The notes under the pieces: generated by a model
Seen by the model: only the letters and a program-made list of their open reading frames with translations
Told to the model about the DNA's origin: nothing
Databases searched by the model: none
Program-made: the position numbers and the translations under genes
NCBI GenBank assembly: GCA_963847185.1
Contig: CAWJYV010000005.1
Location: 1 to 64,000, forward strand
From: an uncultured Methanosarcinaceae archaeon
GTDB taxonomy: Archaea; Halobacteriota; Methanosarcinia; Methanosarcinales; Methanosarcinaceae
Length of the DNA stretch: 64,000 nt
Reading direction: 5' to 3'
Shown: in pieces, positions 1-17,585 of the stretch
Layout of the letters: every line of letters starts with the position of its first letter
How positions within the stretch are numbered: the first letter of the stretch is position 1

Positions 1-443
1 CTATCAATTAATTTGTTTTTAACTTCGTCCCGTGAGTCAAATATTAATGAGCATCCCCACTAACTAATATTAATTTGATTTTATAAATTGCTTTTGTGAT
101 ATTTGTAAAATAAGCCCCAGACGGTTCTTTTATTATTTAATTTGTGTTTGAGTAGTTTATACAGACATCAAGGAATTTATAGGCACAATCTCTCTAAATT
201 ACAGATGCACGAATAAATTTCGCAGAGATTTTTTTGTAATCTTTCTCGCAGAATAGTGGTCTTAGCGCAGTAGTTTAGAGGCTACTTTCCCAGTTCAATT
301 TTAAAACTAAGCTCCGAAGGACAAAAGATATTTTCCTGGGATAGTAATGCTTATTATTCTTTATTGTGAATGTACTATGGTCGTCTTTCTAACCTATAAG
401 TATATAGTATAGTACTATTACTTCTCTAAATGGGAGAAGATAA

Positions 444-1244
444 ATGACTGTTTTGAGTATTTTGAGTTGTAAAATACTTCAGGATGAAATAATTTGGCTT
501 ATTGTAAATGATTCTCAAATAAAGAGAATTCTAATTGTAGCAAATGGGAATATCTCCGAATTTATAGAAAAACTAGATGAACAGCATATCTGTTATGACA
601 TTGTTCCGTTCAAAAAGCTACCACAGGCACTTAATAATGTCGACAAGGATGAACTCGCTGTTGTAATTAACCTTATGGAACTTGGGCTTCATGCAGCACC
701 AAAAATATTGAAATCTGAAGTTTATCAAAATATCAGGGAAATGACACCATTCTCCAATGGAATACTCATTTTTTACGGTCTTTGTGGTAACGTTCTGGGC
801 AATGTGGAGGAAGACTTCTGCCTGGAAAAAGATAGTTGCACGGTGCGGATACTAAGGGATGACGAAAGAATCGTAGATGACTGCATCGGAGCAACGGTGG
901 GAGGTGGTGCAAACTACCTTAAATTGCTTAAAACCCACAGTAAAGAGCCTGCTTTCTTTTTTACACCTATGTATGCCAGTTCATGGAAAGAACTTTTAAA
1001 CATTAATAAACTTCATTCTAATCCTGAAAAGGCAATAAAAATGGCAAAAAAGATCAATAACTTAGCAGGATATTCAAGAGTTGCAAAAGTCAATACAGGT
1101 CTTACATATGTAAAGGACATCGATGCAAAGATTGAAGAATATGCTAAATTGTTTGGATATAGCATGTTCGAGATCAGTGGCAATCAGAAAGTATTCGAGA
1201 ATTGTTATCTCTCGATAAAAAATGAAATACATAATAACGATTAA
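444..1244 (+). CDS. DUF1638-domain protein
   Basis: 266-aa ORF with RBS-like GGGAG; motifs LGLH..P, FYGLCG and VDDCIG are typical of Methanosarcina DUF1638 proteins. Confidence 0.8.
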   Translation: MTVLSILSCKILQDEIIWLIVNDSQIKRILIVANGNISEFIEKLDEQHICYDIVPFKKLPQALNNVDKDELAVVINLMELGLHAAPKILKSEVYQNIREMTPFSNGILIFYGLCGNVLGNVEEDFCLEKDSCTVRILRDDERIVDDCIGATVGGGANYLKLLKTHSKEPAFFFTPMYASSWKELLNINKLHSNPEKAIKMAKKINNLAGYSRVAKVNTGLTYVKDIDAKIEEYAKLFGYSMFEISGNQKVFENCYLSIKNEIHNND

Positions 1245-1256
1245 TAAAAGCTAATT

Positions 1257-1310
1257 ATGCCGGTCTTAAGTATAGTTGCCTGTGAAATGCTTGAAGATGG
1301 ATTTAGATGA
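1257..1310 (+). pseudogene. N-terminal stub of a second DUF1638 paralog
   Basis: ATG CCG GTC TTA AGT ATA GTT GCC TGT GAA ATG CTT GAA GAT = MPVLSIVACEMLED, matching MTVLSILSCKILQD of the upstream gene; stops after 17 codons. Confidence 0.6.
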
Positions 1311-1313
1311 AAG

Positions 1314-2705
1314 TTATAATAACTTTTCAATTTTAAGTAGCTCATCGGCTTCTTCTTTACTTAAAATTCCTCTCATTATTACAATGTCCTTAACAGGCAT
1401 TTTCTTCTTCAGCACTTCTTTTGCGACTTCTGCAGCCTTAAGATACCCGATCTTTGGAGCAAGAAAAGTTACAAGAATAGGATTTAGCTCAAGGTAAGCT
1501 CTGCACCTATCTTCATGAGCCTTAATCCCTTCTACACAACGTTCCTGAAAAACTGGTAGATAATTCGTTAATAGGGAGATGGATACAAGAATATTGGAGG
1601 TCATTACAGGGGTCATAACATTTAGCTCGAGCTGCCCTGCCTGAGCTGCAAGAGCGACTGTTGTATCGTTTCCCACAATCTGGAAGCCTATCATGTCAAG
1701 ACATTCGGCCATTACAGGATTATATTTCCCTGGCATTATGGATGATCCCGGCTGTACAGCCGGAAGTTCAATTTCGGAAATTCCGGTGGTAGGGCCGGCA
1801 TTAAGGAGCCTGAGATCGTTAGCTATTCTTATAAGTTCAAGTGCAAGTTCCCGGAGAGATCCTGAAAAGGCTGCAAGCTGGGATCGGCTCTGCAAAGCTT
1901 CGAAACTGTCAACTGCCCTTTTAAAAGGAAGTTTGCAAAGCTCGGACAGTATTGAGATTACAAGTTCCTGATAACCCGGAAACGTATTTGCCCCTGTTCC
2001 GGTTGCAGTGCCTCCTAATGGAAGCTCGAGAAGATCATCTCTCCGTTCTTTTATCCTGCGCGAAGCCTTCAATAGCGCAAATGAATAAGCTCCGAACTCG
2101 TCACCAAGCGTAACAGGTATGGCATCCATAAGATGTGTCCGGCCTGATTTCGGGATTCCCGAAAATTCCTCTGCTTTTGCCCGAAAAGCTCCAGAAAGAG
2201 AAGAAAGTACATCTTGGAGCCTGTCAGCTGCAAAAATAATGGCTATGTAGGAGGCGGTTGGAAAAGTGTCATTAGTTGACTGAGCCTGATTCACGTGATC
2301 GTTAGGGCTCAGGAAAGTATAATCCCCTCTTTTCTGTCCCAGTATTTCGAGAGCGCGGTTAGCTAGAACCTCATTTATGTTCATATTAAAAGAAGTACCT
2401 GCGCCTGCCTGAAATACGTCCACAGGAAACTGGTCTGAATATCTTCCTCCGAGATCGTTAAGGACTTCCTCGGCTGCTACCACGATTGCATTACCTCTCT
2501 CTTGATCAAGACTTCCAAGCTCAATATTAGCAAGGGTTGCTGCCTTTTTTATTAGAATGTATGCCCTGACGAATTCCGGCCTTGCCATATGCCCGCTGAC
2601 CGGAAAATTAAAGATAGCCCGCTGGGTCTGGATGCCATAATAGGCATTTTCAGGGATTTCCATTTCTCCCAGGGAATCCCTCTCGATTCGGGTTTTCGGA
2701 GTAAT
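1314..2705 (-). CDS. aspA: Aspartate ammonia-lyase / class II fumarase family lyase (aspartase-like)
   Basis: Signature GSSIMPGKYNP; DVFQAGAGTSFNMN, QSTNDTFPT and GRTHLMDA. Conserved TRIERDSLG lies upstream of the 2663 ATG, so the probable start is ATT at 2705. Confidence 0.8.
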   Translation of the reverse strand: MTPKTRIERDSLGEMEIPENAYYGIQTQRAIFNFPVSGHMARPEFVRAYILIKKAATLANIELGSLDQERGNAIVVAAEEVLNDLGGRYSDQFPVDVFQAGAGTSFNMNINEVLANRALEILGQKRGDYTFLSPNDHVNQAQSTNDTFPTASYIAIIFAADRLQDVLSSLSGAFRAKAEEFSGIPKSGRTHLMDAIPVTLGDEFGAYSFALLKASRRIKERRDDLLELPLGGTATGTGANTFPGYQELVISILSELCKLPFKRAVDSFEALQSRSQLAAFSGSLRELALELIRIANDLRLLNAGPTTGISEIELPAVQPGSSIMPGKYNPVMAECLDMIGFQIVGNDTTVALAAQAGQLELNVMTPVMTSNILVSISLLTNYLPVFQERCVEGIKAHEDRCRAYLELNPILVTFLAPKIGYLKAAEVAKEVLKKKMPVKDIVIMRGILSKEEADELLKIEKLL

Positions 2706-2747
2706 AGACTCACCTCAGAAAATTATTATTCAAAAGCTTCAGAATAT

Positions 2748-3515
2748 TTACTCGGGTTCCTTTCTAAGTTCTTTGATTTCCCTTCTGGCCTTCCCGATTC
2801 CTTCAATAGGTGGAACACCTTTCGGGCAGACAGCCTTGCAGTTGGCATGAAACTTACAACCCCACCAGCCGAATTTGCTGTTAGCAAGCATGAGTCTCGA
2901 TTCCTTATCTGCCTCACGCGGATCAATATGAAATCTGTATAGCTTTGCAAGAGCAGCAGGGCCCAAAAATTCGTTTTCTTTTCCCGAGACCGGGCAGGAA
3001 CCCACACAGGCAGCGCAGAGTATGCAGTTTGTATACTTCTCAAGCTCATTTACCGATTCAGGCGTCATAAGCCACTCCTTTTCAGGGAGAGAGGAAGCTG
3101 GTTTTAATGTCGGCTCGACTGCCCTGTAGAACTCAAAGAATTTGTCCATATCCACAATGAGGTCCTTTACTTTAGGCAGAGAAGGGAGAGGTTCCACAAG
3201 GATCTCATTTTCAGGATCCCAGGAGATGGTATCTTCCATTCCCGGAAAAGGCTTCAGTTTTATATTCCCTTTACCTTTAAGAAGGGATTCTATCTGGACT
3301 CTGCAAGCAAGCCTTGGGATCTTATTAATCAGCATTGCGCAACTCCCGCAGACGGCACCCCTACAGGAATAGCGGAAGGCAAGGGAATCGTCGATCTCTT
3401 CCTGAATTTTGAACAGCGCGGAAAGGACCGTCATCCCTGATGAGGGTTCGATTTCAAATATGTCGTAATGGTAATCCCCGGTCTCCCTATCAAAGCGGAA
3501 TATCTTCAATTTCAT
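2748..3515 (-). CDS. sdhB: Succinate dehydrogenase/fumarate reductase iron-sulfur subunit
   Basis: SCRGAVCGSC...LAC (2Fe-2S), CILCAACVGSCP (4Fe-4S), CKFHANCKAVCP (3Fe-4S), FLGPAAL; start overlaps the flavoprotein stop. Confidence 0.9.
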   Translation of the reverse strand: MKLKIFRFDRETGDYHYDIFEIEPSSGMTVLSALFKIQEEIDDSLAFRYSCRGAVCGSCAMLINKIPRLACRVQIESLLKGKGNIKLKPFPGMEDTISWDPENEILVEPLPSLPKVKDLIVDMDKFFEFYRAVEPTLKPASSLPEKEWLMTPESVNELEKYTNCILCAACVGSCPVSGKENEFLGPAALAKLYRFHIDPREADKESRLMLANSKFGWWGCKFHANCKAVCPKGVPPIEGIGKARREIKELRKEPE

Positions 3516-5308
3516 CAGTACACGCGCTCCTTTACCGGGAATTTTCCGAGCCTTACGGGCAGAGATTCAAGAACAGGTTGTCTATCTTTGAGCCTGTAGA
3601 TTGTATGATATAGAAACTTTTCATCATCCCTTTCTGGATAATCAACCCTTGAATGAGATCCACGGCTCTCTTGCCTGGCAATAGCCCCCCTTGCAACAGC
3701 TTCTGCAATATCAAATAGGCCTTCGAGTTCAAGGGTATAGATAAGTGCATGATTGAATAGAGAAGACTTATTGTTTATATAAACTTCAGGATAAGTGGTT
3801 TTGAGTTCAAGGAGTTTTTTCAACCCTTTTTCCATCTTACTCCCTTCCCGAAAGACTCCGAAATACTCAAACATTGTTTTTTTCAGTTCATCCCTGAGAC
3901 TGTGCATCTTTACCCCGGATTTCCTGGCAAGCAGGGCTTTTATTCGTGAGTCTTCTGCTGACAGGCGTTTACGGACAGCCTTTTCAGCCCCCTTTCTATC
4001 CCAGCTTCCAGATGATGGAAAATTTTTCCCAATCTCCTGTCCAGCAAGCTTTCCAAAAACTACAGTCTCAAGCAGTGAATTACCCCCTAGGCGGTTTGCC
4101 CCATGCACGCTGACGCAGGAACATTCCCCTGCTGCATATAAGCCGGGCAGTTCAGTTGCAAGGTCATTTCCTGCAGCCACGCCTCCCATCGAATAGTGCT
4201 GGCCAGGTTGTACAGGAATTGGAGTTTCAACAGGGTCCACACCTGCAAAATCTATGGAAATTAGCCTTATCCCTGGAAGGCGTTCTGCAATTTTCTCCTT
4301 TTTCAGATGCCTGAGATCAAGGAGCACATAACCGCCTTCAAACCCCCTGCCTTCATCAATCTCCTGCTGTGCTGCCCTAGCAACTATATCCCTTGGTGCA
4401 AGTTCCATGGATTTTGGGGCATATTTCTCCATGAAACGTTCGTTTCTGCTGTTTAGAAGGTATCCTCCTTCCCCTCTAGCTCCTTCAGTGATAAGGATAT
4501 TCGTATCGTAAAGGGTAGTTGGGTGGAACTGCACAAATTCCATGTCTTTTAAAGGCACGCCTGCCCTGAGAGCCAGAGAAGCTCCATCTCCGGTATTAAT
4601 CAGGGAATTTGTTGAGCGGGCAAAAAGTCTCCCAAAACCCCCAGTAGCAAGTAGTAGAGAATAGCATGTGAAACCATGCAGGCTGCTGTCAGCGATATTT
4701 ACTGCAATACAGCCTGCACACCTTTTCGCTTTTCTGGAGCCTTTTTCAAAAGAATCATTTCCTACTTTTACCAAGGAGCTTACAAAGAATTCATCATAAA
4801 AGGTAAGTTTTCCCCCCTTTCCTTTTTCATTTTTCTCTCTGCCTACAAGCTGTTCGTAAAGAGTATGCAGAATGTTATGTCCCGTACGGTCTGCAGCATA
4901 GCAGGTTCTTGGAAACATCCCTCCTCCAAAAGACCTCTGGGCGATCCTGCCGTCTGGAAGCCGTGAAAAGACGGTTCCGAAATGTTCAAGTTCTATTATT
5001 GCAGCAGGCGCGTTTTTACACATGATTTCTACTGCATCCTGATCAGCCAGGTAGTCCGAACCCTTGACCGTATCAAATGCATGGTCTTCCCAGGAATCCG
5101 CAGCAGCAGCATTTCCAAGGGCTGCGTTTATCCCGCCTTGGGCTGAAACGGAATGGGAGCGGAGAGGATGAACCTTTGAAATAATAGCTGTATCTAACCC
5201 CTGATCTATAGTCTCAATTGCTGCACGAAGTCCGGTCAGCCCGGCCCCAACGATAATCACGTCATGTGAATGGATAGAATAGCCTGTTTCTGTTCCTTCG
5301 TCTTTCAA
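3515..5308 (-). CDS. sdhA: Succinate dehydrogenase/fumarate reductase flavoprotein subunit
   Basis: [16 protein letters not shown] (covalent FAD His), [45 protein letters not shown]. Confidence 0.92.
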
Positions 5309-5525
5309 TTATCTTCCCCCACATTTGATTTCAATAGTACAAAATTTGTGAAGAATTAACCTGGAAAATCAAAAAGTTTTGAGCATTAGAGATTAGGTAT
5401 TAGAAATTATATATTAGAGATTTGCATTAGAATTTACATGTAAGATTTTTTAGTTCTATCGAAAAACTTTCATTTTGAGTCTCGTAATTTACCGAATATT
5501 CTGTGAGGCATTGATAACGCTTACT

Positions 5526-5805
5526 TTATTCAGAAAAAAACTCTCTCCAGAACTTCTTCAAGATTATCTTCTTTCCTGAAGTTGAAATCTGCAGCCCCAA
5601 TCCGAAACCCCCGGCAAAGAGAGAAAATCCAGGGTTTCTATAGTCCAGCTCGAAATCCTCTAAATTTATCTTTTTCTGCTCCCTTGATAAAACCAAAGAA
5701 CATGTCAGCGATAATAAGGGCAACTATAGAGATTCCATATCAGATTACAGTCTTGAAAGCCTGGAAGTTTCTCGTAAAGCCATAATTTCTATATTGAGTT
5801 CCCAT
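5526..5805 (-). pseudogene. Degraded small membrane-protein gene (family uncertain, VIT1/CCC1-like at best)
   Basis: ATG at about 5805 opens MGTQYRNY...TVI*YGISIVALIIADMFFGFIKG...AGL*; hydrophobic text continues in another frame (GFSLFAGGFGLGL). Confidence 0.3.
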
Positions 5806-5846
5806 CAAATTTTATAAATCTCACGTGTTGCCTTCATTTGTATCCT

Positions 5847-7292
5847 TTATTTATTAACTGTTACAGTTTTGATATTCACAAATTCCTTGATCCCGTAATG
5901 AGAAAGCTCCCTTCCAACTCCGGACTTTTTGATCCCACCAAAAGGCAGCCTTGGATCCGACTTGACCATTCCATTTACAGCTACAAATCCTGACTTAATC
6001 TTCTTTGCCAGCCTCAATGCTCTTCCAAGGTTTTCAGACCAGATTTCAGCCCCAAGCCCGAACTCTGTAGAGTTTGCAAGTTCCACTGCCTCATCTTCAT
6101 CTTTTGCAGTTATTATCGGTGCAACAGGCCCGAAAACCTCAATATTAAACACCTTCATGTCACTGCTAGCTCCAGGAATAATAGTAGGATTGAAGAAAAA
6201 GCCTTTCTCGTGCTCCTCACCATAAGTCTGAGGCTTGGCTCCCTTTTCAATTGCTTCTTTAAGGATTCCATCGAGACTGTCAATAAATTCCTTCTTTGCA
6301 AGTGGCCCTATATCGGTCTCCTCATCCATTGGATCTCCTATTTTCAATTCCTTTGTATAACGTTCAAAAGCTTTGATAAAATCCCCTACTACATCTTCTA
6401 CCACAATGAATCTCTTGGCAGCGATACAACTCTGGCCGGTATTTATAAATCGGGATTTTACAGCTAACCGAGCAGCTTTTTCAATATCGGCATCCTCAAG
6501 CACTATAAATGGATCAGATCCTCCCAGTTCCAGTACAAGCGGTTCAATTGCTTCTCCTGAGAGTTTCCCAATCTCTGAGCCTGCACCTATGCTGCCGGTA
6601 AGCGAAACTCCATTCACTAGGTCAGCTTTAAGAATCTCCATTGCAGTTTTTGAGTCAATTAAAAAACTCTTGAAAACTCCCTCAGGAAGTCCAGCTTCTA
6701 AAAAGACTTTTTCAATCTCCAAGGCTGATCTTGGCACATTTGAAGCATGTTTAAGCACACAGACATTTCCTGCACACATTGCAGGCACTGCAAACCTGAA
6801 AACCTGCCAGAATGGAAAATTCCATGGCATAATCCCAAAAATTACTCCCAGAGGCTCACAAGTAACGTAACTTTTCTCAGATCCGGTATCTACAACCTCA
6901 TCTTTCAAAAATTCAGCTGCATCTTTTGCGTAATAGTTACAGAGCTGAGTACATTTCTCAGATCCTGTATCTACAACCTCATCGTTCAGGAACTCAGGAG
7001 CTTTCTCCGCGTAATAATCACACAGCCACGTGCATTTCTGAATTTCGGCTCTCGACTGCGTGATAGGTTTTCCCATTTCCTTCGTAATGATTTCGGCATA
7101 GGTATTTGTGTTTTGTCGAAGTACTTCCCCAACCTTAGCAAAAAATTTTGCTCTCTCTTCAATAGATAGCGAACTCCAGGTCAGAAAAGCTTTTCTAGAC
7201 TTTTCTATCTGTGCATTACACTCTCCAAAAGAAAGCAAATCATAAGTCCAGTTTACTTCCTCAGTATAAGGATTAATGGATTCTATTTTCAT
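5847..7292 (-). CDS. gabD: NAD(P)-dependent succinate-semialdehyde dehydrogenase (ALDH family)
   Basis: MPWNFPFWQVFR, LKHASNVP, LELGGSDP, NTGQSCIA, EVFGP, PFGGIKKSG; carries an internal 27-aa duplication. Confidence 0.85.
   Translation of the reverse strand: MKIESINPYTEEVNWTYDLLSFGECNAQIEKSRKAFLTWSSLSIEERAKFFAKVGEVLRQNTNTYAEIITKEMGKPITQSRAEIQKCTWLCDYYAEKAPEFLNDEVVDTGSEKCTQLCNYYAKDAAEFLKDEVVDTGSEKSYVTCEPLGVIFGIMPWNFPFWQVFRFAVPAMCAGNVCVLKHASNVPRSALEIEKVFLEAGLPEGVFKSFLIDSKTAMEILKADLVNGVSLTGSIGAGSEIGKLSGEAIEPLVLELGGSDPFIVLEDADIEKAARLAVKSRFINTGQSCIAAKRFIVVEDVVGDFIKAFERYTKELKIGDPMDEETDIGPLAKKEFIDSLDGILKEAIEKGAKPQTYGEEHEKGFFFNPTIIPGASSDMKVFNIEVFGPVAPIITAKDEDEAVELANSTEFGLGAEIWSENLGRALRLAKKIKSGFVAVNGMVKSDPRLPFGGIKKSGVGRELSHYGIKEFVNIKTVTVNK
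6873..7037. repeat. Diverged in-frame 81-bp tandem duplication inside the SSADH gene
   Basis: tttctcagatcc.gtatctacaacctcatc begins at 6873 and at 6954 (period 81). Confidence 0.85.
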
Positions 7293-7617
7293 TATTTCCC
7301 CCCAAAAAAAAGTTGTTTATTAATGTTTAAGCTCCCTGTACTATAATTAAAGGATAAATAAAACCTGAAAAGGAAGAGATTTCATTAATTAATATATTAT
7401 GTACTACAGCTTATTCTCCTGTTTATCCTGGATAACAGACCGGCTAACAGAGAGAATTAAAAGAAAGAAGTTTTAGAATTTTGGATTTATCATATCAATG
7501 ATAGAGTTGACCCAGTAACCATAATTGAAGAACGAAAAGTCAGACAATTTAGGTATTATAGTTACTGGGAGAATACAGGTAGTTAATTGTTTATTGTCTT
7601 TATTACGGATTTCCTTT

Positions 7618-7944
7618 TCAAGTGGCTTTGCCATTCTGGCAGAAGTACATAGAAGGAGTGCCATCTCCGAGATTATATTCTTTCCAGACTGCACAGGTGT
7701 AGCAAATGCACTGCTGGTCAGGGTTAAGGTCCTGACAGGTAGCTTTACCCGTGGAACAATATACGCCAGGAACATTTTGAGGTTCAGGAACATTTCCTTC
7801 TCCTGCACTTTCCAATGCCTTTACCAGGCCGTCAAGTTTATCCATTGCACACTTGCTGTTAGCCTGGACAGGACACTTTGGGCACATGCACCTTTTGATA
7901 TTTTCTAAGGTATACGGAACTTTACTATTTTCACTCGTATTCAT
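7618..7944 (-). CDS. DUF2769-domain Cys-rich protein
   Basis: CMCPKCPVQ...YCSTGKA...CICYTCAV...YFC pattern. Confidence 0.75.
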   Translation of the reverse strand: MNTSENSKVPYTLENIKRCMCPKCPVQANSKCAMDKLDGLVKALESAGEGNVPEPQNVPGVYCSTGKATCQDLNPDQQCICYTCAVWKEYNLGDGTPSMYFCQNGKAT

Positions 7945-8513
7945 TATATCCCCCGAAATAATATTCATAGAAAAATATTCATTTCATATTTTAAGTTTAG
8001 AGAATAAAAGTCTTTTCAGTTTACTGAAAGTTATAACTTATGCAGTTGAACTCAAAAATTAATAATAAGGCTTACCTAGAGCCACAGAAGAATCGCACTA
8101 TATAGAGAATGCAGAGTGAAAAGAGATTAGAGGAAATAGAAATACCGAAGTGGCTAATTAATTAAGCAGCCTATGATATGCAATAAGAGAAGGCAGAAAG
8201 AGCAAGGTAAATTCATTGATGGTTGCATAAAACCAATGCGATGATATCGATTGGAAACAGATTGAGAAATACAACTCCTTATCATAAATATATATGATTT
8301 GATCTTACGGATTCCTGGATATTATTAATTGTTCTCCCAGATGTTCCGAGCTCCAGCACGTCAGCTATAATTATTCGGGAGGTTATCACGATAAGAAAGG
8401 AGTTTCCAATACTGCCCGGCAGTTGGTCTGAAACAAAGTTCTTGCGAAAAGTTAAAGGCTGGCGGCAGAATAGAAAGATAAATTATTAGCTTTGGAACTG
8501 AAAAAAGAATTAG

Positions 8514-8598
8514 TGCGAGAGGTGCGATTCGAACGCACGAACTCCTACAAGACTGGACTCTGAATCCAGCGCCTTTGACCTGGCTGGGCAACTCTCGC
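8514..8598 (-). tRNA. tRNA-Leu(CAG)
   Basis: GCGAGAG...CTCTCGCA acceptor stem; anticodon arm CTGGA-TTCAGAG-TCCAG; long variable arm; GTTCGAAT. Confidence 0.95.
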
Positions 8599-8640
8599 AT
8601 ATTGATGTTTTACTTTGTTAAAATCTAGTTATCTATAAAA

Positions 8641-8676
8641 CTTAGAATCTGTCGCCTTTGGCTGGGCAACCCTCGC
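8641..8676 (-). pseudogene. 5' remnant of a second tRNA-Leu
   Basis: Minus strand GCGAGGGTTGCCCAGCCAAAGGCGACAGA matches the tRNA-Leu 5' half with a D-loop deletion; no 3' half. Confidence 0.65.
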
Positions 8677-8719
8677 ACGATATGGCTTATGTTGCAACAG
8701 CACATAGTAGTGCTCTTTG

Positions 8720-8736
8720 TTTTTATACTTTTTCCT
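8720..8736 (-). promoter_or_regulatory. BRE/TATA promoter of the tRNA-Leu transcript
   Basis: Minus strand GGAAAAAGTATAAAAA about 45 nt upstream of the tRNA remnant. Confidence 0.55.
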
Positions 8737-8858
8737 TGAAAGCCTTTTCTGAGAATGAAATTTGCTATGGGTTTTCGGATGGGTATTTTTTCCGGGAAGC
8801 CGGGTTCTTTATGTCCTTTTATCGTTTATAAAGGAAATTTAGAAATTGATGAAACTTT

Positions 8859-9767
8859 TCATTTCATCAATTTCAGGATAAGGGCTTTTTGAGCGTGAAG
8901 GCGGTTTTCGGCTTCTTCGAAGATGACTGAGTTCGGGCCGTCCATAACCTCGTCCGTAATTTCCAGGCCTCTTCTCGCTGGGAGGCAGTGCATGACTATT
9001 GCGTCCGGTTTTGCAGCCTCCAGGAGTTCAGTGTTGATCTGGAAGGAGGCAAAGTCCTTCAGGCGCTTTTCCTGTTCGGCTTCATCACCCATGGAAACCC
9101 AGACATCGGTGTAGAGAACATCTGCATCTTTTGCGGCAACTTTCGGGTCATCTGTGATTGTGAACTTGCCTCCGAGGGCTTTTGCCTTTTCAAGGAACTC
9201 GGCTTTTGGTTCGTATCCTTTCGGGCAGGCGATGGCAAATTCCATCCCCATGATAGCCGAGCCGAGTAAGGCTGAGTTGCAGACGTTATTTCCGTCACCT
9301 ATCCAGGCGAATTTCAGGCCCTCAAACCTGCTTTTATACTCTATGATTGTCATAAAATCACCAAGTATCTGGCAGGGGTGTTCCCTGTCTGAAAGGGCAT
9401 TGATCACAGGTATGCTTGAGTATTCGGCAAGCTTCTTCACAGTTTCGTGGCTCAGGACCCTGGCCATGATTCCATGCAGGTAGCCGGAAAGAGTTCTGGC
9501 TGTATCTTCGATAGTTTCGCCTCTTCCTATCTGGATATCCTTTGTGCTCAGGTAAAGGGCATGCCCTCCAAAATCTGACATTGCAACTTCAAAGGATACT
9601 CTAGTTCTTGTAGACGATTTCTCGAAAATCATCCCAAGGCTTTTGTTCTTCAAATACTCGGTAGATTCTCCTGCCTTGCGCTTCGCTTTCAGGTCCGCGG
9701 CCGATTCGAGGAGCTCGTAAATCTCCTCTTTCGACAGGTCAGTTATTGAAAGTACGTCTTTCTTCAT
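8859..9767 (-). CDS. argF: Ornithine carbamoyltransferase
   Basis: [36 protein letters not shown]. Confidence 0.97.
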
Positions 9768-9899
9768 CGCTTCAACCCCGGTCATTATAGCTGAACTTAC
9801 TCTATTCTAGCTGAATTAAATTTTATTTACCACATAGCACATTCTATATTCCACATAGTACTTATTTGCACACCGTACTTTTGCAGACTTCTAAAATGG

Positions 9900-11201
9900 T
9901 CAGCCTCTAAGTTCTTTCATATGGTCTATTCTCTTCTGGATGAGGGCAGCAGTGCCAATATCTTTCCGGAAAAATAGCTTGCCTTTGATATTTTCAAGAG
10001 CATTCTGAGCAATTTTTTCGGCTGCACCTATAGTATCCGCACGCCCGACTACAGCAATTGCGCGGGAGCTGGTCGTGTAAACTTTCCCTTCTTTTTCATA
10101 GACACTGGCATAATAAATGGAAGCGTCTCCTATGTCTCCTACAATTACCTCGCTGTCCTTCTCAGGATTCTCAGGATAGCCCGCAGGGACTGCGTACTTG
10201 CAAACCGTGGCTTTTTTGCTGAAGCTTACAGGCAAGTTTCCAAGAGTTCCTTTAACTACTGCAGACATAATTTCTACAAAATCTGTTTCAATGAGGGGAA
10301 TTACATTCATGGCTTCGGGATCTCCGAATCTGGCATTGAATTCCACTACTTTTGGACCTCTGGCAGTAAGGATGAACTGGCCGTAGAGGATGCCTTGATA
10401 TCCTGTCCCTGTTTCTTTGGAAAGCGCCTTTACAGTGTCCTGCATAATCTTTTTTGCTTTTATAATATCTTCCGGGAGCATAAAGGGAAGGATTTCTCCA
10501 GCATCGGTATATGAGCCCATTCCGCCTGTATTTGGTCCCAGGTCGCCTTCATAGGCTCTTTTGTGGTCCTGCACCGCAGGAAAGAAGACAAGGCTTTTCC
10601 CATCTACAAAAGCCTGAAGAGTGAACTCTTCGCCTATGAAACGTTCTTCAATAACCACGGAATCCTTCTGAAGAAGCTCACTTGTATAAGCTTTGGCAGC
10701 CTCGAGATCCGGAAGCTGATCCCCCATTACTTTTACCCCTTTGCCTCCTGTAAGGCCAGAGGGTTTGACTGCAACATCCCCCAGTTTTTCAATGAAAGCA
10801 TGTGCAGGGCCTTCTTCTGTAAAGACCTCATAGGCAGGGCAGCCTTCAATTCCGTATTTTTTCATGAAATTTCTTGCCCAGGCCTTGTCAAATTCAATAA
10901 TTGCACAGGCTTTTTTAGGGCCTACAACTGGAATTCCGGCTTCCCAGAGTGCATCTGCCACTCCTGCTGCAAGCGGAGCTTCAGGGCCTACAAAAGCCAT
11001 TTCTATCTTTCTGGATTTTGCATATTCAATTATTTTTTCAACTTCTGTCTCTTTCTCAAGCAGAAAGTCTTCACAAAGGGCGGCAATTCCGGGATTTTTC
11101 TTTGCCATTAATGCATAGAGGGAAGGGTTATGCTTGCTCTTCTTAATTCCTTCGGCAATTGCGTGTTCTCTTCCACCACCGCCGATAAGCAAAATCTTCA
11201 T
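9900..11201 (-). CDS. purD: Phosphoribosylamine--glycine ligase
   Basis: [37 protein letters not shown]. Confidence 0.97.
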
Positions 11202-11656
11202 TTTTATTCTCCTTGTTCTAAAAATATACTTTATTACTTTAAAATTTAGTTTTTAAATCTAATTGGGGAAATGAACTGAGAAAAGATAGTGAATTTTCAG
11301 TCCTCAAAATTTCTCAATAAAAACCTCTTATATTATTTTAAGCAGCATATATTATTGTTAATTATTTTGTCAGGAATAAACTAAGGGACTTCCTATTTCT
11401 CTATTTCTTCTGATAAATATCTTCTCATTGTTTTCTTATTGTCAACCTTTAGACATGGAAAAAAACAGCAGTTTTATATTTTCATTAATTTTTACTTCTG
11501 AGCTCTCTGTAAGCTTATTTTTCCAATCAGAAGCATTTTTAATGTTTTATGCTGAAAGTCAAAAGATCTTTATTTTCCTGAATTGCAATAACCCTATTTT
11601 TATACGTAAAAACAAGTAAAACCTTTTCAGGAAATAATTTTCAGGAGATCAGGAGT

Positions 11657-11968
11657 ATGAATGAAAACCCATATGAAATATTCCAGAAAGAATGCCCGGA
11701 AGTAGCTGCACGTTTTGGTGATCTGATTGAAGCTCAAAAAGCATTGAAAGGACTTGATACTAAAACAAAACAGCTAATCAATATAGCCATACAGACTGCT
11801 AACCGAAATCCAAAAGGTGTTCAGATGCATGCATTGATGGCAAAAAATGAAGGTGCAACACGTGATGAAGTTATTGGTGCAGTGGTATTAAATCTTCATC
11901 ATTCAGGGTTTGCTAAGGTTCTTGAATGTCTTCCTGCAGCCCTTGAAGGATTTGAAGGCAGGATCTAA
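11657..11968 (+). CDS. Carboxymuconolactone decarboxylase (AhpD-like) family protein
   Basis: LDTKTKQLINIA...H..MAKNEGATRDE pattern; RBS AGGAG. Confidence 0.75.
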   Translation: MNENPYEIFQKECPEVAARFGDLIEAQKALKGLDTKTKQLINIAIQTANRNPKGVQMHALMAKNEGATRDEVIGAVVLNLHHSGFAKVLECLPAALEGFEGRI

Positions 11969-12001
11969 GAATCAGAGAAGGAAGGTGCTGGTGCACTTTC
12001 C

Positions 12002-16851: not shown

Positions 16852-16923
16852 TACATCAGCCGGGACTCGAACCCGGGTTCGAGCGTTGGCAACGCCCGGT
16901 GATGACCGCTACACTACTGATGT
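16852..16923 (-). tRNA. tRNA-Gly(GCC)
   Basis: ACATCAG...CTGATGTA; anticodon arm GGGCG-TTGCCAA-CGCTC. Confidence 0.93.
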
Positions 16924-16927
16924 TCTT

Positions 16928-17002
16928 TGGTGCCCAGACCCGGATTCGAACCGGGGACAACTGCCTCTTCAGGGCAGCGCTCTCCCACTGAGCTACCTGG
17001 GC
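16928..17002 (-). tRNA. tRNA-Phe(GAA)
   Basis: GCCCAGG...TCTGGGCACCA; anticodon arm CTGCC-CTGAAGA-GGCAG. Confidence 0.95.
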
Positions 17003-17098
17003 AGGCAGACATATTTCATTACTTTTTGAATGCTGAGTAAAAATAATATTTTGAATAATGTTTTTGCTTTCCGGAAAAATCTCCGGAAAATTTTGAAG

Positions 17099-17172
17099 TG
17101 GGCCCGCTGAGATTCGAACTCAGGACCTCCGCCATGTCAAGGCGACGTCATAACCGTCTAGACCACGAGCCC
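17099..17172 (-). tRNA. tRNA-Val(GAC)
   Basis: GGGCTCG...CGGGCCCA; anticodon arm TCGCC-TTGACAT-GGCGG. Confidence 0.95.
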
Positions 17173-17269
17173 ATGTTGTTAGTTAATTTTTGTCGCTAAC
17201 TATTTTGTTACTCACATCACAAATAATTAGCAGATAATTAGTTCAAGATGTGAATGTTTAAAAAAGTTA

Positions 17270-17341
17270 TACATCAGCCGGGATTCGAACCCGGGTTCGA
17301 GCGTTGGCAACGCCCGGTGATGACCGCTACACTACTGATGT
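17270..17341 (-). tRNA. tRNA-Gly(GCC), second copy
   Basis: Near-identical to 16852-16923. Confidence 0.93.
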
Positions 17342-17345
17342 TCTT

Positions 17346-17420
17346 TGGTGCCCAGACCCGGATTCGAACCGGGGACAACTGCCTCTTCAGGGCAGCGCTC
17401 TCCCACTGAGCTACCTGGGC
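17346..17420 (-). tRNA. tRNA-Phe(GAA), second copy
   Basis: Identical to 16928-17002. Confidence 0.95.
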
Positions 17421-17511
17421 AGGCAGCATATTTCACTACTTTTTGAAACATTATATAAAAAGCTGTAATGCCTTTTTAACTTTCCGGAAAAATCTCCGGA
17501 AAATTTTGAAG

Positions 17512-17585
17512 TGGGCCCGCTGAGATTCGAACTCAGGACCTCCGCCATGTCAAGGCGACGTCATAACCGTCTAGACCACGAGCCC
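17512..17585 (-). tRNA. tRNA-Val(GAC), second copy
   Basis: Identical to 17099-17172; TATA box (CTTATATAAA, minus strand) at 17641-17650. Confidence 0.95.

Follow-up and report, generated by a model that had tools for sequence, protein, structure and literature searches.

A five-gene cluster for a putative cytoplasmic route between 2-oxoglutarate and aspartate, with an anchorless succinate dehydrogenase, in Methanosarcina

Analyzing a 64,000-nucleotide stretch from an uncultured Methanosarcinaceae archaeon (assembly GCA_963847185.1, contig CAWJYV010000005.1, positions 1 to 64,000; hereafter the window), we found that four co-oriented open reading frames (ORFs) on the minus strand, filling positions 1314-7292, encode an aldehyde dehydrogenase (Aldh), the flavoprotein and iron-sulfur subunits of a succinate dehydrogenase (SdhA and SdhB), and a lyase. 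We judge it slightly more probable than the opposite that this region is one copy of a five-gene operon, aldh-tpp-sdhA-sdhB-aspA, encoding a cytoplasmic route that joins 2-oxoglutarate, succinate, fumarate, and aspartate. By homology, a thiamine pyrophosphate (TPP) enzyme would decarboxylate 2-oxoglutarate to succinic semialdehyde and Aldh would convert the semialdehyde to succinate, two steps that together make up the tricarboxylic acid (TCA) bypass of cyanobacteria. SdhAB, lacking a membrane anchor, would interconvert succinate and fumarate, with electrons passing between the exposed 3Fe-4S end of SdhB and a soluble carrier, not methanophenazine, and an aspartase-type lyase would interconvert fumarate and aspartate. 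A preliminary description of this DNA had proposed a C4-dicarboxylate pathway of four enzymes. That enzyme set stands, but it was incomplete, since the TPP enzyme encoded between aldh and sdhA in most relatives had been missed. With this enzyme as the fifth member, the cluster reads as the cyanobacterial 2-oxoglutarate-to-succinate bypass joined to SdhAB and a lyase.

The order of genes runs from aldh (5847-7292, 481 amino acids [aa]) through sdhA (3515-5308, 597 aa, TTG start) and sdhB (2748-3515, 255 aa) to the aspA-like lyase gene (1314-2663, 449 aa), the last of the cluster. The co-orientation and the sdhA/sdhB overlap described earlier are both present, the overlap being the single base 3515. 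In most related Methanosarcina loci about 2 kb lie between aldh and sdhA and hold the gene of a 544-aa TPP enzyme. The corresponding gap in the window is 540 nt and contains a 3'-end relic of this gene of 2-oxoglutarate decarboxylase type (5430-5784, minus strand), which covers residues 431-544 of 544 at 42-47% identity and has stop codons inside. At least 11 genomes keep all five genes in one block with this order.

The TPP enzyme is predicted to be of the cyanobacterial 2-oxoglutarate decarboxylase type. It exceeds the cut-off (509) of NF006187, a model named "acetolactate synthase large subunit" by NCBI, with 799 bits for the protein of locus L096 and 809 bits for an intact copy elsewhere in this genome. 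Its best relatives outside the genus, at 41-49% identity, belong to Desulfuromonadales, Clostridia, Pirellulales, and many cyanobacteria; the cyanobacterial homologues are 44-46% identical, and in three cyanobacterial loci an Aldh gene (42-46% identity) lies directly upstream of the TPP gene, in the same order as here. For the Microcystis 2-oxoglutarate decarboxylase, pocket residues were obtained by docking and some were mutated, with Lys386 and Lys471 at the substrate, according to passages of PMC10418658. Registering these residues on our alignment via more than 10 named positions, we found that the equivalents of both lysines (MaKGD numbering) are conserved in this genome's intact copy, in L096, and in the cyanobacterial enzymes, and that neither lysine is retained in the two true acetolactate synthase (ALS) paralogues of the genome. 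Together with the relationships of Aldh described below, these similarities suggest that the pair is the cyanobacterial bypass, leading from 2-oxoglutarate to succinate.

Aldh matches the Pfam family Aldedh with an E-value of 6e-136. Its best NCBIfam model is the NADP-dependent succinic-semialdehyde dehydrogenase (SSADH) model NF006915 (518 bits; cut-off 730), which matches in two stretches because of a 27-residue duplication. This duplication, added to the N-terminal part of the protein by two in-frame 81-nt tandem copies (6870-7031, 77% alike; direct-repeat family D1), is shared with the longer Aldh forms of genomes G034 and G042 (1443-nt matches), so it appears to be old and tolerated. For an orthologous Aldh without the duplication, the nearest solved structures are the SSADH chains 4IT9 and 3VZ1-3 (437 bits), which we take to be a Synechococcus enzyme, and the top seven are all named SSADH; the earlier reading of the gene as gabD-like thus gains support. 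The window Aldh has the catalytic-cysteine motif GQSC and the ELGG motif, and its ratio of nonsynonymous to synonymous substitution rates (dN/dS) is 0.09-0.11 against three relatives.

The lyase carries the domains Lyase_1 and FumaraseC_C and scores 581 with PRK12273, a model of the aspartase subfamily (cut-off 510), and it misses the cut-offs of the class II fumarase models TIGR00979 (fumC_II; 464 versus 665) and PRK12425 (399 versus 840). Its best solved relative is the aspartase AspB (1J3U, 433 bits). Among solved chains, five full-length aspartases score 400-433 and those named fumarase score 297-397. The motifs GAGTS, QSTND, GRTHLMDAIP, and GSSIMPGKYNPVM align with substrate and SS-loop residues of AspB, and T101, S140-T141-N142, T187-H188, K324, and N326 of AspB, in what we take to be the numbering of these sites, are all identical in the lyase in the 1J3U alignment. 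The PRK12273 score and AspB as nearest relative agree with the aspartase type proposed earlier. The dN/dS of this gene against the same three relatives is 0.10-0.16. A class-I fumarase is encoded elsewhere in the genome, so the lyase would not be needed as a fumarase.

SdhA matches the Pfam families FAD_binding_2 and Succ_DH_flav_C and scores 733 bits with TIGR01812 (cut-off 567). Its best solved relative is Escherichia coli SdhA (1NEK, 491 bits, versus 416 bits for FrdA), and the model sdhA_forward gives 641, versus 533 for fum_red_Fp. Aligned to 1NEK, it retains the histidine that binds flavin adenine dinucleotide covalently, together with H242, R286, H354, and R399, which we take to be the catalytic residues in E. 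coli numbering, and the claim that the flavin-binding and dicarboxylate-site residues are intact is thereby confirmed. The gene is single-copy and is the only member of the SdhA/NadB family in the genome. SdhB contains Fer2_3 and Fer4 domains (PRK05950, 239 versus a cut-off of 228; TIGR00384, 213 versus 88), and all three cysteine patterns of an SdhB with three iron-sulfur clusters could be read, as previously described: C-x4-C-x2-C-x11-C for 2Fe-2S, C-x2-C-x2-C-x3-CP for 4Fe-4S, and C-x5-C-x3-CP for 3Fe-4S. The solved relatives nearest to both subunits are the E. coli and mitochondrial SdhA and SdhB. Family scans detected no CCG domain in SdhB, which scores 139 with the TfrB model NF004898 (cut-off 385), and SdhA scores 466 with the TfrA model NF004900 (cut-off 718). 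After the fourth cysteine of the 2Fe-2S cluster, at about residues 80-103, SdhB carries an insert of about 20 residues, which in a structural model (predicted local distance difference test [pLDDT] 80.6 for SdhB) has no regular secondary structure and a pLDDT of 52-68.

The absence of SdhC, SdhD, or FrdC anchor genes and of a CCG domain had been noted for the locus, and that of the anchor extends to the genome, where none was found elsewhere. In this genome, 99.8% complete, the Sdh_cyt family PF01127 gave a best E-value of 0.42, while it was positive in 11 of 14 control genomes. A custom hidden Markov model (HMM) of SdhC, built from the anchors of five related loci, found nothing better than an E-value of 0.02 among the 18,807 ORFs of the genome (PF02300, PF02313, and PF05328 were not separately searched), and that match resembles a small three-helix transporter; the same HMM found SdhC in 39 of 80 related loci. 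Relatives at about 50% identity in Syntrophus, Syntrophorhabdus, Aminicenantes, and Sysuiplasmataceae have an Sdh_cyt gene just upstream of sdhA, those in Chlorobi have a CCG subunit in place of the Sdh_cyt anchor, and five bacterial loci examined have a Rieske protein and a cytochrome b after sdhB.

The SdhB insert separates these anchored relatives from the window protein. A long SdhB spacer of 31-39 residues occurs in 21 of the 80 loci, none of which has an Sdh_cyt or CCG ORF, versus 33 of the 35 loci with a short spacer of 13-19 residues; in the remaining loci the search pattern overshot (2), SdhB was missing (6), or the spacer could not be measured (16). In reading these counts, it should be kept in mind that the genomes, being related, do not count as independent samples, and that some of the loci are short. 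When 79 SdhA rows were placed in a FastTree tree, the window sequence and 20 insert-bearing loci formed one clade (support 98), with a Hydrothermarchaeota locus outside it. Thus, insert-bearing anchorless SdhAB is a coherent clade, with members in Methanosarcina, Methanomicrobiaceae, Methanoregulaceae, Methanobacteriaceae, one Syntrophomonadaceae bacterium, and Thor- and Promethearchaeota. Its gene neighborhoods are distinctive as well: a class-II lyase gene is a neighbor in 16 of the 21 insert-bearing loci and in none of the 59 others, a rubredoxin fused to a flavin mononucleotide (FMN)-dependent dehydrogenase in 9 and 0, a 2-oxoacid:ferredoxin oxidoreductase (KorA) in 6 and 4, and a TPP enzyme in 4 and 0, respectively. 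Of three clade lyases scanned, those of Methanobacteriaceae (L006) and Syntrophomonadaceae are aspartase-type, and that of L015, an uncultured archaeon grouping with Thorarchaeota, is fumarase-type. True TfrB (624-690 bits versus the cut-off of 385) is kept in all five of the other methanogen genomes with anchorless SdhAB that were examined, so in these methanogens SdhAB does not just serve as the fumarate reductase.

As a docking element for the redox partner, the SdhB insert is a candidate. That partner is probably linked to ferredoxin, F420, or thiols, as we infer, and the earlier view that it could not be named still holds, because no candidate carried through. In Methanobacteriaceae, sdhA-sdhB-lyase is followed by a gene for rubredoxin fused to the C-terminal portion of an FMN-dependent 2-hydroxyacid dehydrogenase, which also lies near the cluster in one Thorarchaeota genome (examples are L006:10856-12163, L013:10912-12162, and L017:1553-2821) and is a candidate electron partner in those relatives. 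For the window's SdhAB, rubredoxin is rejected, as the genome has none, and a search for a homologue of the fusion gave nothing beyond a 36-bit match. In a Methanomicrobiaceae locus, a pyruvate-oxidase-like TPP enzyme in which rubredoxin matched twice at the N-terminus is encoded between a malic enzyme gene and sdhA (L004:4981-6981). Six CCG proteins are encoded elsewhere in the window's genome, one in a GlcD-like cluster, as judged from ORF layout, one a stand-alone HdrD-like protein, and the others apparently HdrB and HdrD by length and sequence. The stand-alone HdrD-like protein was rejected as the partner of a split Tfr or type E enzyme, since it occurs in 59 of 59 genomes of the genus regardless of SdhAB and so shows no co-distribution with it. 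Two cupredoxin genes lie just upstream of the ancestral cluster (see below) in several genomes (L096:3406-3891 and 4202-4618; L113:5258-5686 and 5954-6436); their products have lipoprotein-type signal sequences and are thus probably outside the cell and unlikely partners.

Within this genome, the cluster appears to have been taken apart and partly replaced. By blastn, the window is collinear with relatives over 1310-5781 and again from about 5842, a break that points to the deletion of about 1.5 kb from the window tpp. DNA contigs of two independent public runs bridge this deletion (1274-6801 and 4688-5964), so it is not an assembly artefact. The window copy belongs to a segment, 1310-8062, that is common with genome G034 as a single collinear blastn match to locus L093 (85% identity over 6913 nt), with flanks that differ on both sides. 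In trees, the window SdhA+SdhB+lyase groups with G034 (support 99), then G014 (98), and then G042 (99), and Aldh groups likewise. The genome itself is placed with G040 by a marker gene and by a second Aldh that stands at the ancestral locus of the cluster. This locus, 83 kb from the window copy at G000:C5:81.5-90.7 kb, is recognized by synteny with a relative, including genes for a HAD hydrolase, a TPR protein, a RimK-like ligase, and cupredoxins. It holds an intact tpp (G000:C5:89114-90745) whose product is most similar, at 90% identity, to that of G040. Its Aldh (G000:C5:87589-88959; L113:7590-8960) is 69% identical to the window Aldh and has GQSR, the catalytic Cys being replaced by Arg; a third Aldh paralogue, on contig C7 (781522-782883), has the catalytic Cys intact. 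No sdhAB or aspA was found at the ancestral locus, and its downstream half is on another contig, where an eIF-1A-like gene stands beside a 43-residue aspA relic. As far as can be predicted from these genes, the genome still has all five enzyme functions, but its genes for them are divided between two loci. The groupings suggest that the window copy is a relocated cassette from another Methanosarcina lineage, and they indicate only within-genus transfer.

The preliminary description had regarded the module as acquired, in a form like a foreign island at a tRNA-Leu gene. The tRNA-Leu(CAG) gene called by ARAGORN (8513-8598, minus strand) is upstream of the cluster, and the cassette stops about 450 nt before it, so that the tRNA lies outside the block common with G034. 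The GC content of the cluster (45-47%) is like that of the neighboring genes argF and purD, the two genes beyond tRNA-Leu on the right side in family scans; no integrase or transposase was found within about 8 kb left of the cassette, and no repeat pair flanks 1310-8062. These observations speak against the foreign island. Foreign origin is likewise not supported, since the genus sequences form one clade, whereas a non-ancestral site and relocation within the genus are. At the left end, contig C2 (G000:C2:2-2004) begins inside aspA and repeats window positions 444-2003 on the opposite strand with 100% protein identity; this gives the contigs an overlap of about 2 kb, with the left flank of the window continuing on C2. 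A contig from a biofilm metagenome joins position 8605 back to 1247, with 35 letters on its shorter side, and other contigs of the run diverge after 8604; the join could be a tandem or circular form of the cassette with tRNA-Leu, or a different arrangement in another strain. In G034, a malic enzyme gene adjoins the cassette.

SdhA matches were found in 16 of 58 other Methanosarcina species genomes: 13 have open frames, one (G027) has an in-frame TAG, one (G042) is frameshifted, and one has a 70-residue fragment beside aldh and sdhB pieces. SdhA is absent from the other 42. Relics of the cluster are present in G012. The sdhA of G027 (L101, G027:C11) ends as an ORF after 470 residues at its single TAG; it could be a pseudogene or be read through, as the genus is able to read TAG as pyrrolysine. 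Named records hold full clusters, aldh-tpp only, aldh-tpp-aspA without sdhAB, or tpp alone; all five genes stand in that of Methanosarcina sp. KYL-1, MSH10X1 and DH2 have partial clusters, and records of M. barkeri, M. vacuolata, M. horonobensis, and M. thermophila list the TPP protein as well. In a tree of an HdrD-like protein from 54 genomes, which as a single-marker tree is a weak species tree, SdhA carriers are scattered and at least 11 state changes are needed. The concatenated SdhA+SdhB+lyase tree places the genus in one clade (support 100), sister to other methanogens, and recovers the pairs of the marker tree, which fits an old presence followed by repeated loss. Thus, vertical inheritance within the genus, which had been named as a challenge to the acquisition of the module, is largely supported, whereas a known role for the module is not.

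At dS values of 0.3-1.3 against three relatives, the four module genes have dN/dS values of 0.07-0.20, which indicate that all four window genes are under purifying selection. No RNA run contains more than 5% of the sampled words. An oligo-dT RNA library from a food-fermentation metagenome yielded eight contigs of 151-217 nt on sdhB, sdhA, and aldh, each with 5-18 differences from the window, which are no proof of transcription, and a second RNA run gave short, poorly matching pieces only.

Several results weigh against a unit of five enzymes with the proposed activities. The lyase misses the cut-off of the aspA equivalog TIGR00839 (513 versus 681), the window Aldh is below every NCBIfam equivalog cut-off, and the TPP pocket differs from the cyanobacterial enzymes at three positions (H385Y, Y465F, and L467F). 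Many species retain aldh-tpp without sdhAB and some genomes have broken copies, which speaks against a requirement for the whole unit. Alternatively, the aldh-tpp pair might have a different 2-oxoacid as its substrate, with cofactor biosynthesis as one conceivable setting, or the lyase might be a fumarase, and the pathway would be coincidental. In public records the TPP protein indeed goes under acetolactate synthase or generic TPP-requiring enzyme, catabolic acetolactate synthases are its best solved relatives, the aspartase scores of the lyase are only moderately above its fumarase scores, and the pair persists without sdhAB. However, both substrate-site lysines of the decarboxylase are conserved, which they are not in the ALS paralogues, the nearest solved relatives of Aldh are all SSADHs, the lyase retains aspartase-type motifs, and at least 11 genomes hold the five genes in one order; we therefore regard such a coincidence as improbable. 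Loss of SdhA in most species, the relics of G012, the frameshifts of G042, the in-frame TAG of G027, the partial clusters of MSH10X1 and DH2, the tpp deletion in the cassette, and the ancestral-locus Aldh without its catalytic Cys would all be expected of a remnant decaying across the genus, with no present role here and the cassette as a neutral hitchhiker. We give this very little credence, in view of four open frames with low dN/dS over appreciable divergence, of five enzyme functions all encoded somewhere in the genome, and of sdhAB-aspA that was lost at the ancestral locus and is back on a cassette from another lineage.

If the five-gene route is accepted, its direction has to be weighed separately. 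We lean, with a confidence that barely approaches even, toward SdhAB as a soluble fumarate reductase fed by the aspartase (aspartate to fumarate to succinate), with the decarboxylase and Aldh as an oxidative arm to succinate. This lean follows from general knowledge: the fumarate/succinate couple lies at about +30 mV, above the known Methanosarcina carriers, for which about -140 mV is the upper limit; soluble SdhA-type enzymes, as far as we know, all work as fumarate reductases; and pairing of aspartase with fumarate reductase is known to feed fumarate reduction in bacteria. In the genome itself, the separate class-I fumarase, which leaves the lyase free of that task, points the same way. On the other side, SdhA is more like succinate oxidizers in both comparisons given above; the irreversible decarboxylase and Aldh make succinate and no succinyl-CoA synthetase (beta subunit) was found in this genome, so SdhAB looks like the sole succinate outlet; and TfrB in the five other methanogens would make a second fumarate reductase redundant there. 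The same points favor an oxidative closure of the TCA cycle, from 2-oxoglutarate through succinic semialdehyde, succinate, and fumarate to aspartate, or to malate via the class-I fumarase, giving a complete cyanobacterial-type cycle. The gene order equals this linear pathway, its first two steps are irreversible, the class-I fumarase is present, and SdhAB beside thiol:fumarate reductase argues for a non-redundant role. We nevertheless consider oxidative closure rather unlikely: from the potentials given above, Methanosarcina has no known acceptor whose potential comes close to or exceeds that of fumarate/succinate, the genome lacks rubredoxin, we know of no soluble SdhAB that is a physiological succinate oxidizer, and species with aldh-tpp and no sdhAB would lack a succinate outlet too, which weakens the argument from the only outlet. 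A bolder version, which we hold to be distinctly unlikely, makes the insert-bearing anchorless SdhAB found in methanogens and Asgard archaea a new class of soluble succinate:acceptor oxidoreductase. In Methanosarcina it would close a complete oxidative TCA cycle together with the bypass, the enzymes from citrate synthase to isocitrate dehydrogenase, and the class-I fumarase. Its non-quinone partner would dock at the SdhB insert, possibly in a ferredoxin-assisted (confurcating) or heterodisulfide-linked reaction.

Compared to known systems, the cluster combines familiar parts in an unfamiliar way. It resembles the cyanobacterial TCA bypass in its adjacent aldh and TPP genes, their order and identity, the substrate-site lysines, and the SSADH relatives of Aldh, but here the pair shares an operon with sdhAB and the gene of an aspartase-type lyase, the host is a strict anaerobe that has no quinones, the decarboxylase gene in the window is a relic, and three active-site-proximal residues differ. 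Like thiol:fumarate reductase TfrAB, SdhAB is a soluble enzyme of SdhA/SdhB type without a membrane anchor in a methanogen. However, TfrB (about 490 aa) consists of an SdhB-like half and a C-terminal CCG half that is heterodisulfide-reductase-like, whereas the window SdhB has 255 aa, and other methanogens carry both TfrB and anchorless SdhAB. The "non-classical" type E SdhABE of Sulfolobus and the MFR of Wolinella and Campylobacter also lack heme-b anchor subunits, but they have a separate CCG subunit, SdhE, which is seen beside sdhB in Chlorobi, Thiotrichaceae, and Aquificota relatives and has no counterpart in the window locus or any of the 21 insert-bearing loci. Classical complex II has the closest subunits, from E. 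coli and mitochondria, and the same three clusters, yet no Sdh_cyt gene was found in this genome and anchored relatives lack the roughly 20-residue SdhB insert. In the bacterial fumarate reduction fed by aspartase, AspA works with Frd, so that an aspartase-type lyase is likewise encoded with a fumarate/succinate oxidoreductase, but the bacterial reductase is membrane-bound and quinol-dependent, while SdhAB here is anchorless.

The remaining features of the locus bear less directly on the cluster. Upstream of aldh, and within the cassette, a small Cys-rich DUF2769 protein is encoded (7618-7968, minus strand, 116 aa; PF10967, E 3.6e-7), which is 86% identical in L093. No functional link to the module emerged, and we set it aside: it is in the cassette only here and in G034 and has two paralogues elsewhere in the genome. 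The tRNA-Leu call has an acceptor stem that pairs, as judged by eye; an Rfam scan of window positions 1-12000 at gathering scores gave no match, that tRNA included. A 19-nt near-copy (95%) of the 5' end of tRNA-Leu at 8659-8677, 78 nt upstream of the tRNA (family D2), is possibly the scar of a past recombination at this gene. Farther into the window, at 16852-17585, there are two tandem copies of a tRNA gene trio, Gly(GCC)-Phe(GAA)-Val(GAC).

The usual teaching is that Methanosarcina has the oxidative TCA branch alone, up to 2-oxoglutarate. The genes of the cluster are routinely named in public records, and the bypass pair was already noted in methanogens in 2011: a passage of PMC12214013 reports that Zhang and Bryant found closely related bypass genes in some of them. 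A literature search, mostly of journals open without subscription, returned no description of SdhAB, its missing anchor, or the five-gene cluster in Methanosarcina. What appears to be new is a soluble SdhAB subfamily marked by the SdhB insert, which in Methanosarcina is predicted to be wired to a decarboxylase/SSADH bypass and an aspartase-type lyase. About a quarter of Methanosarcina species encode, on paper, every further step to fumarate and aspartate, with enzymes otherwise known from cyanobacteria and a succinate dehydrogenase unable to use the usual membrane partner. Close relatives with full, partial, and absent clusters make the genus a natural set of controls, and it also includes genetically tractable species without the cluster. 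Identification of the redox partner would delineate a cytoplasmic system of C4-dicarboxylate redox chemistry in a broad set of anaerobic archaea.

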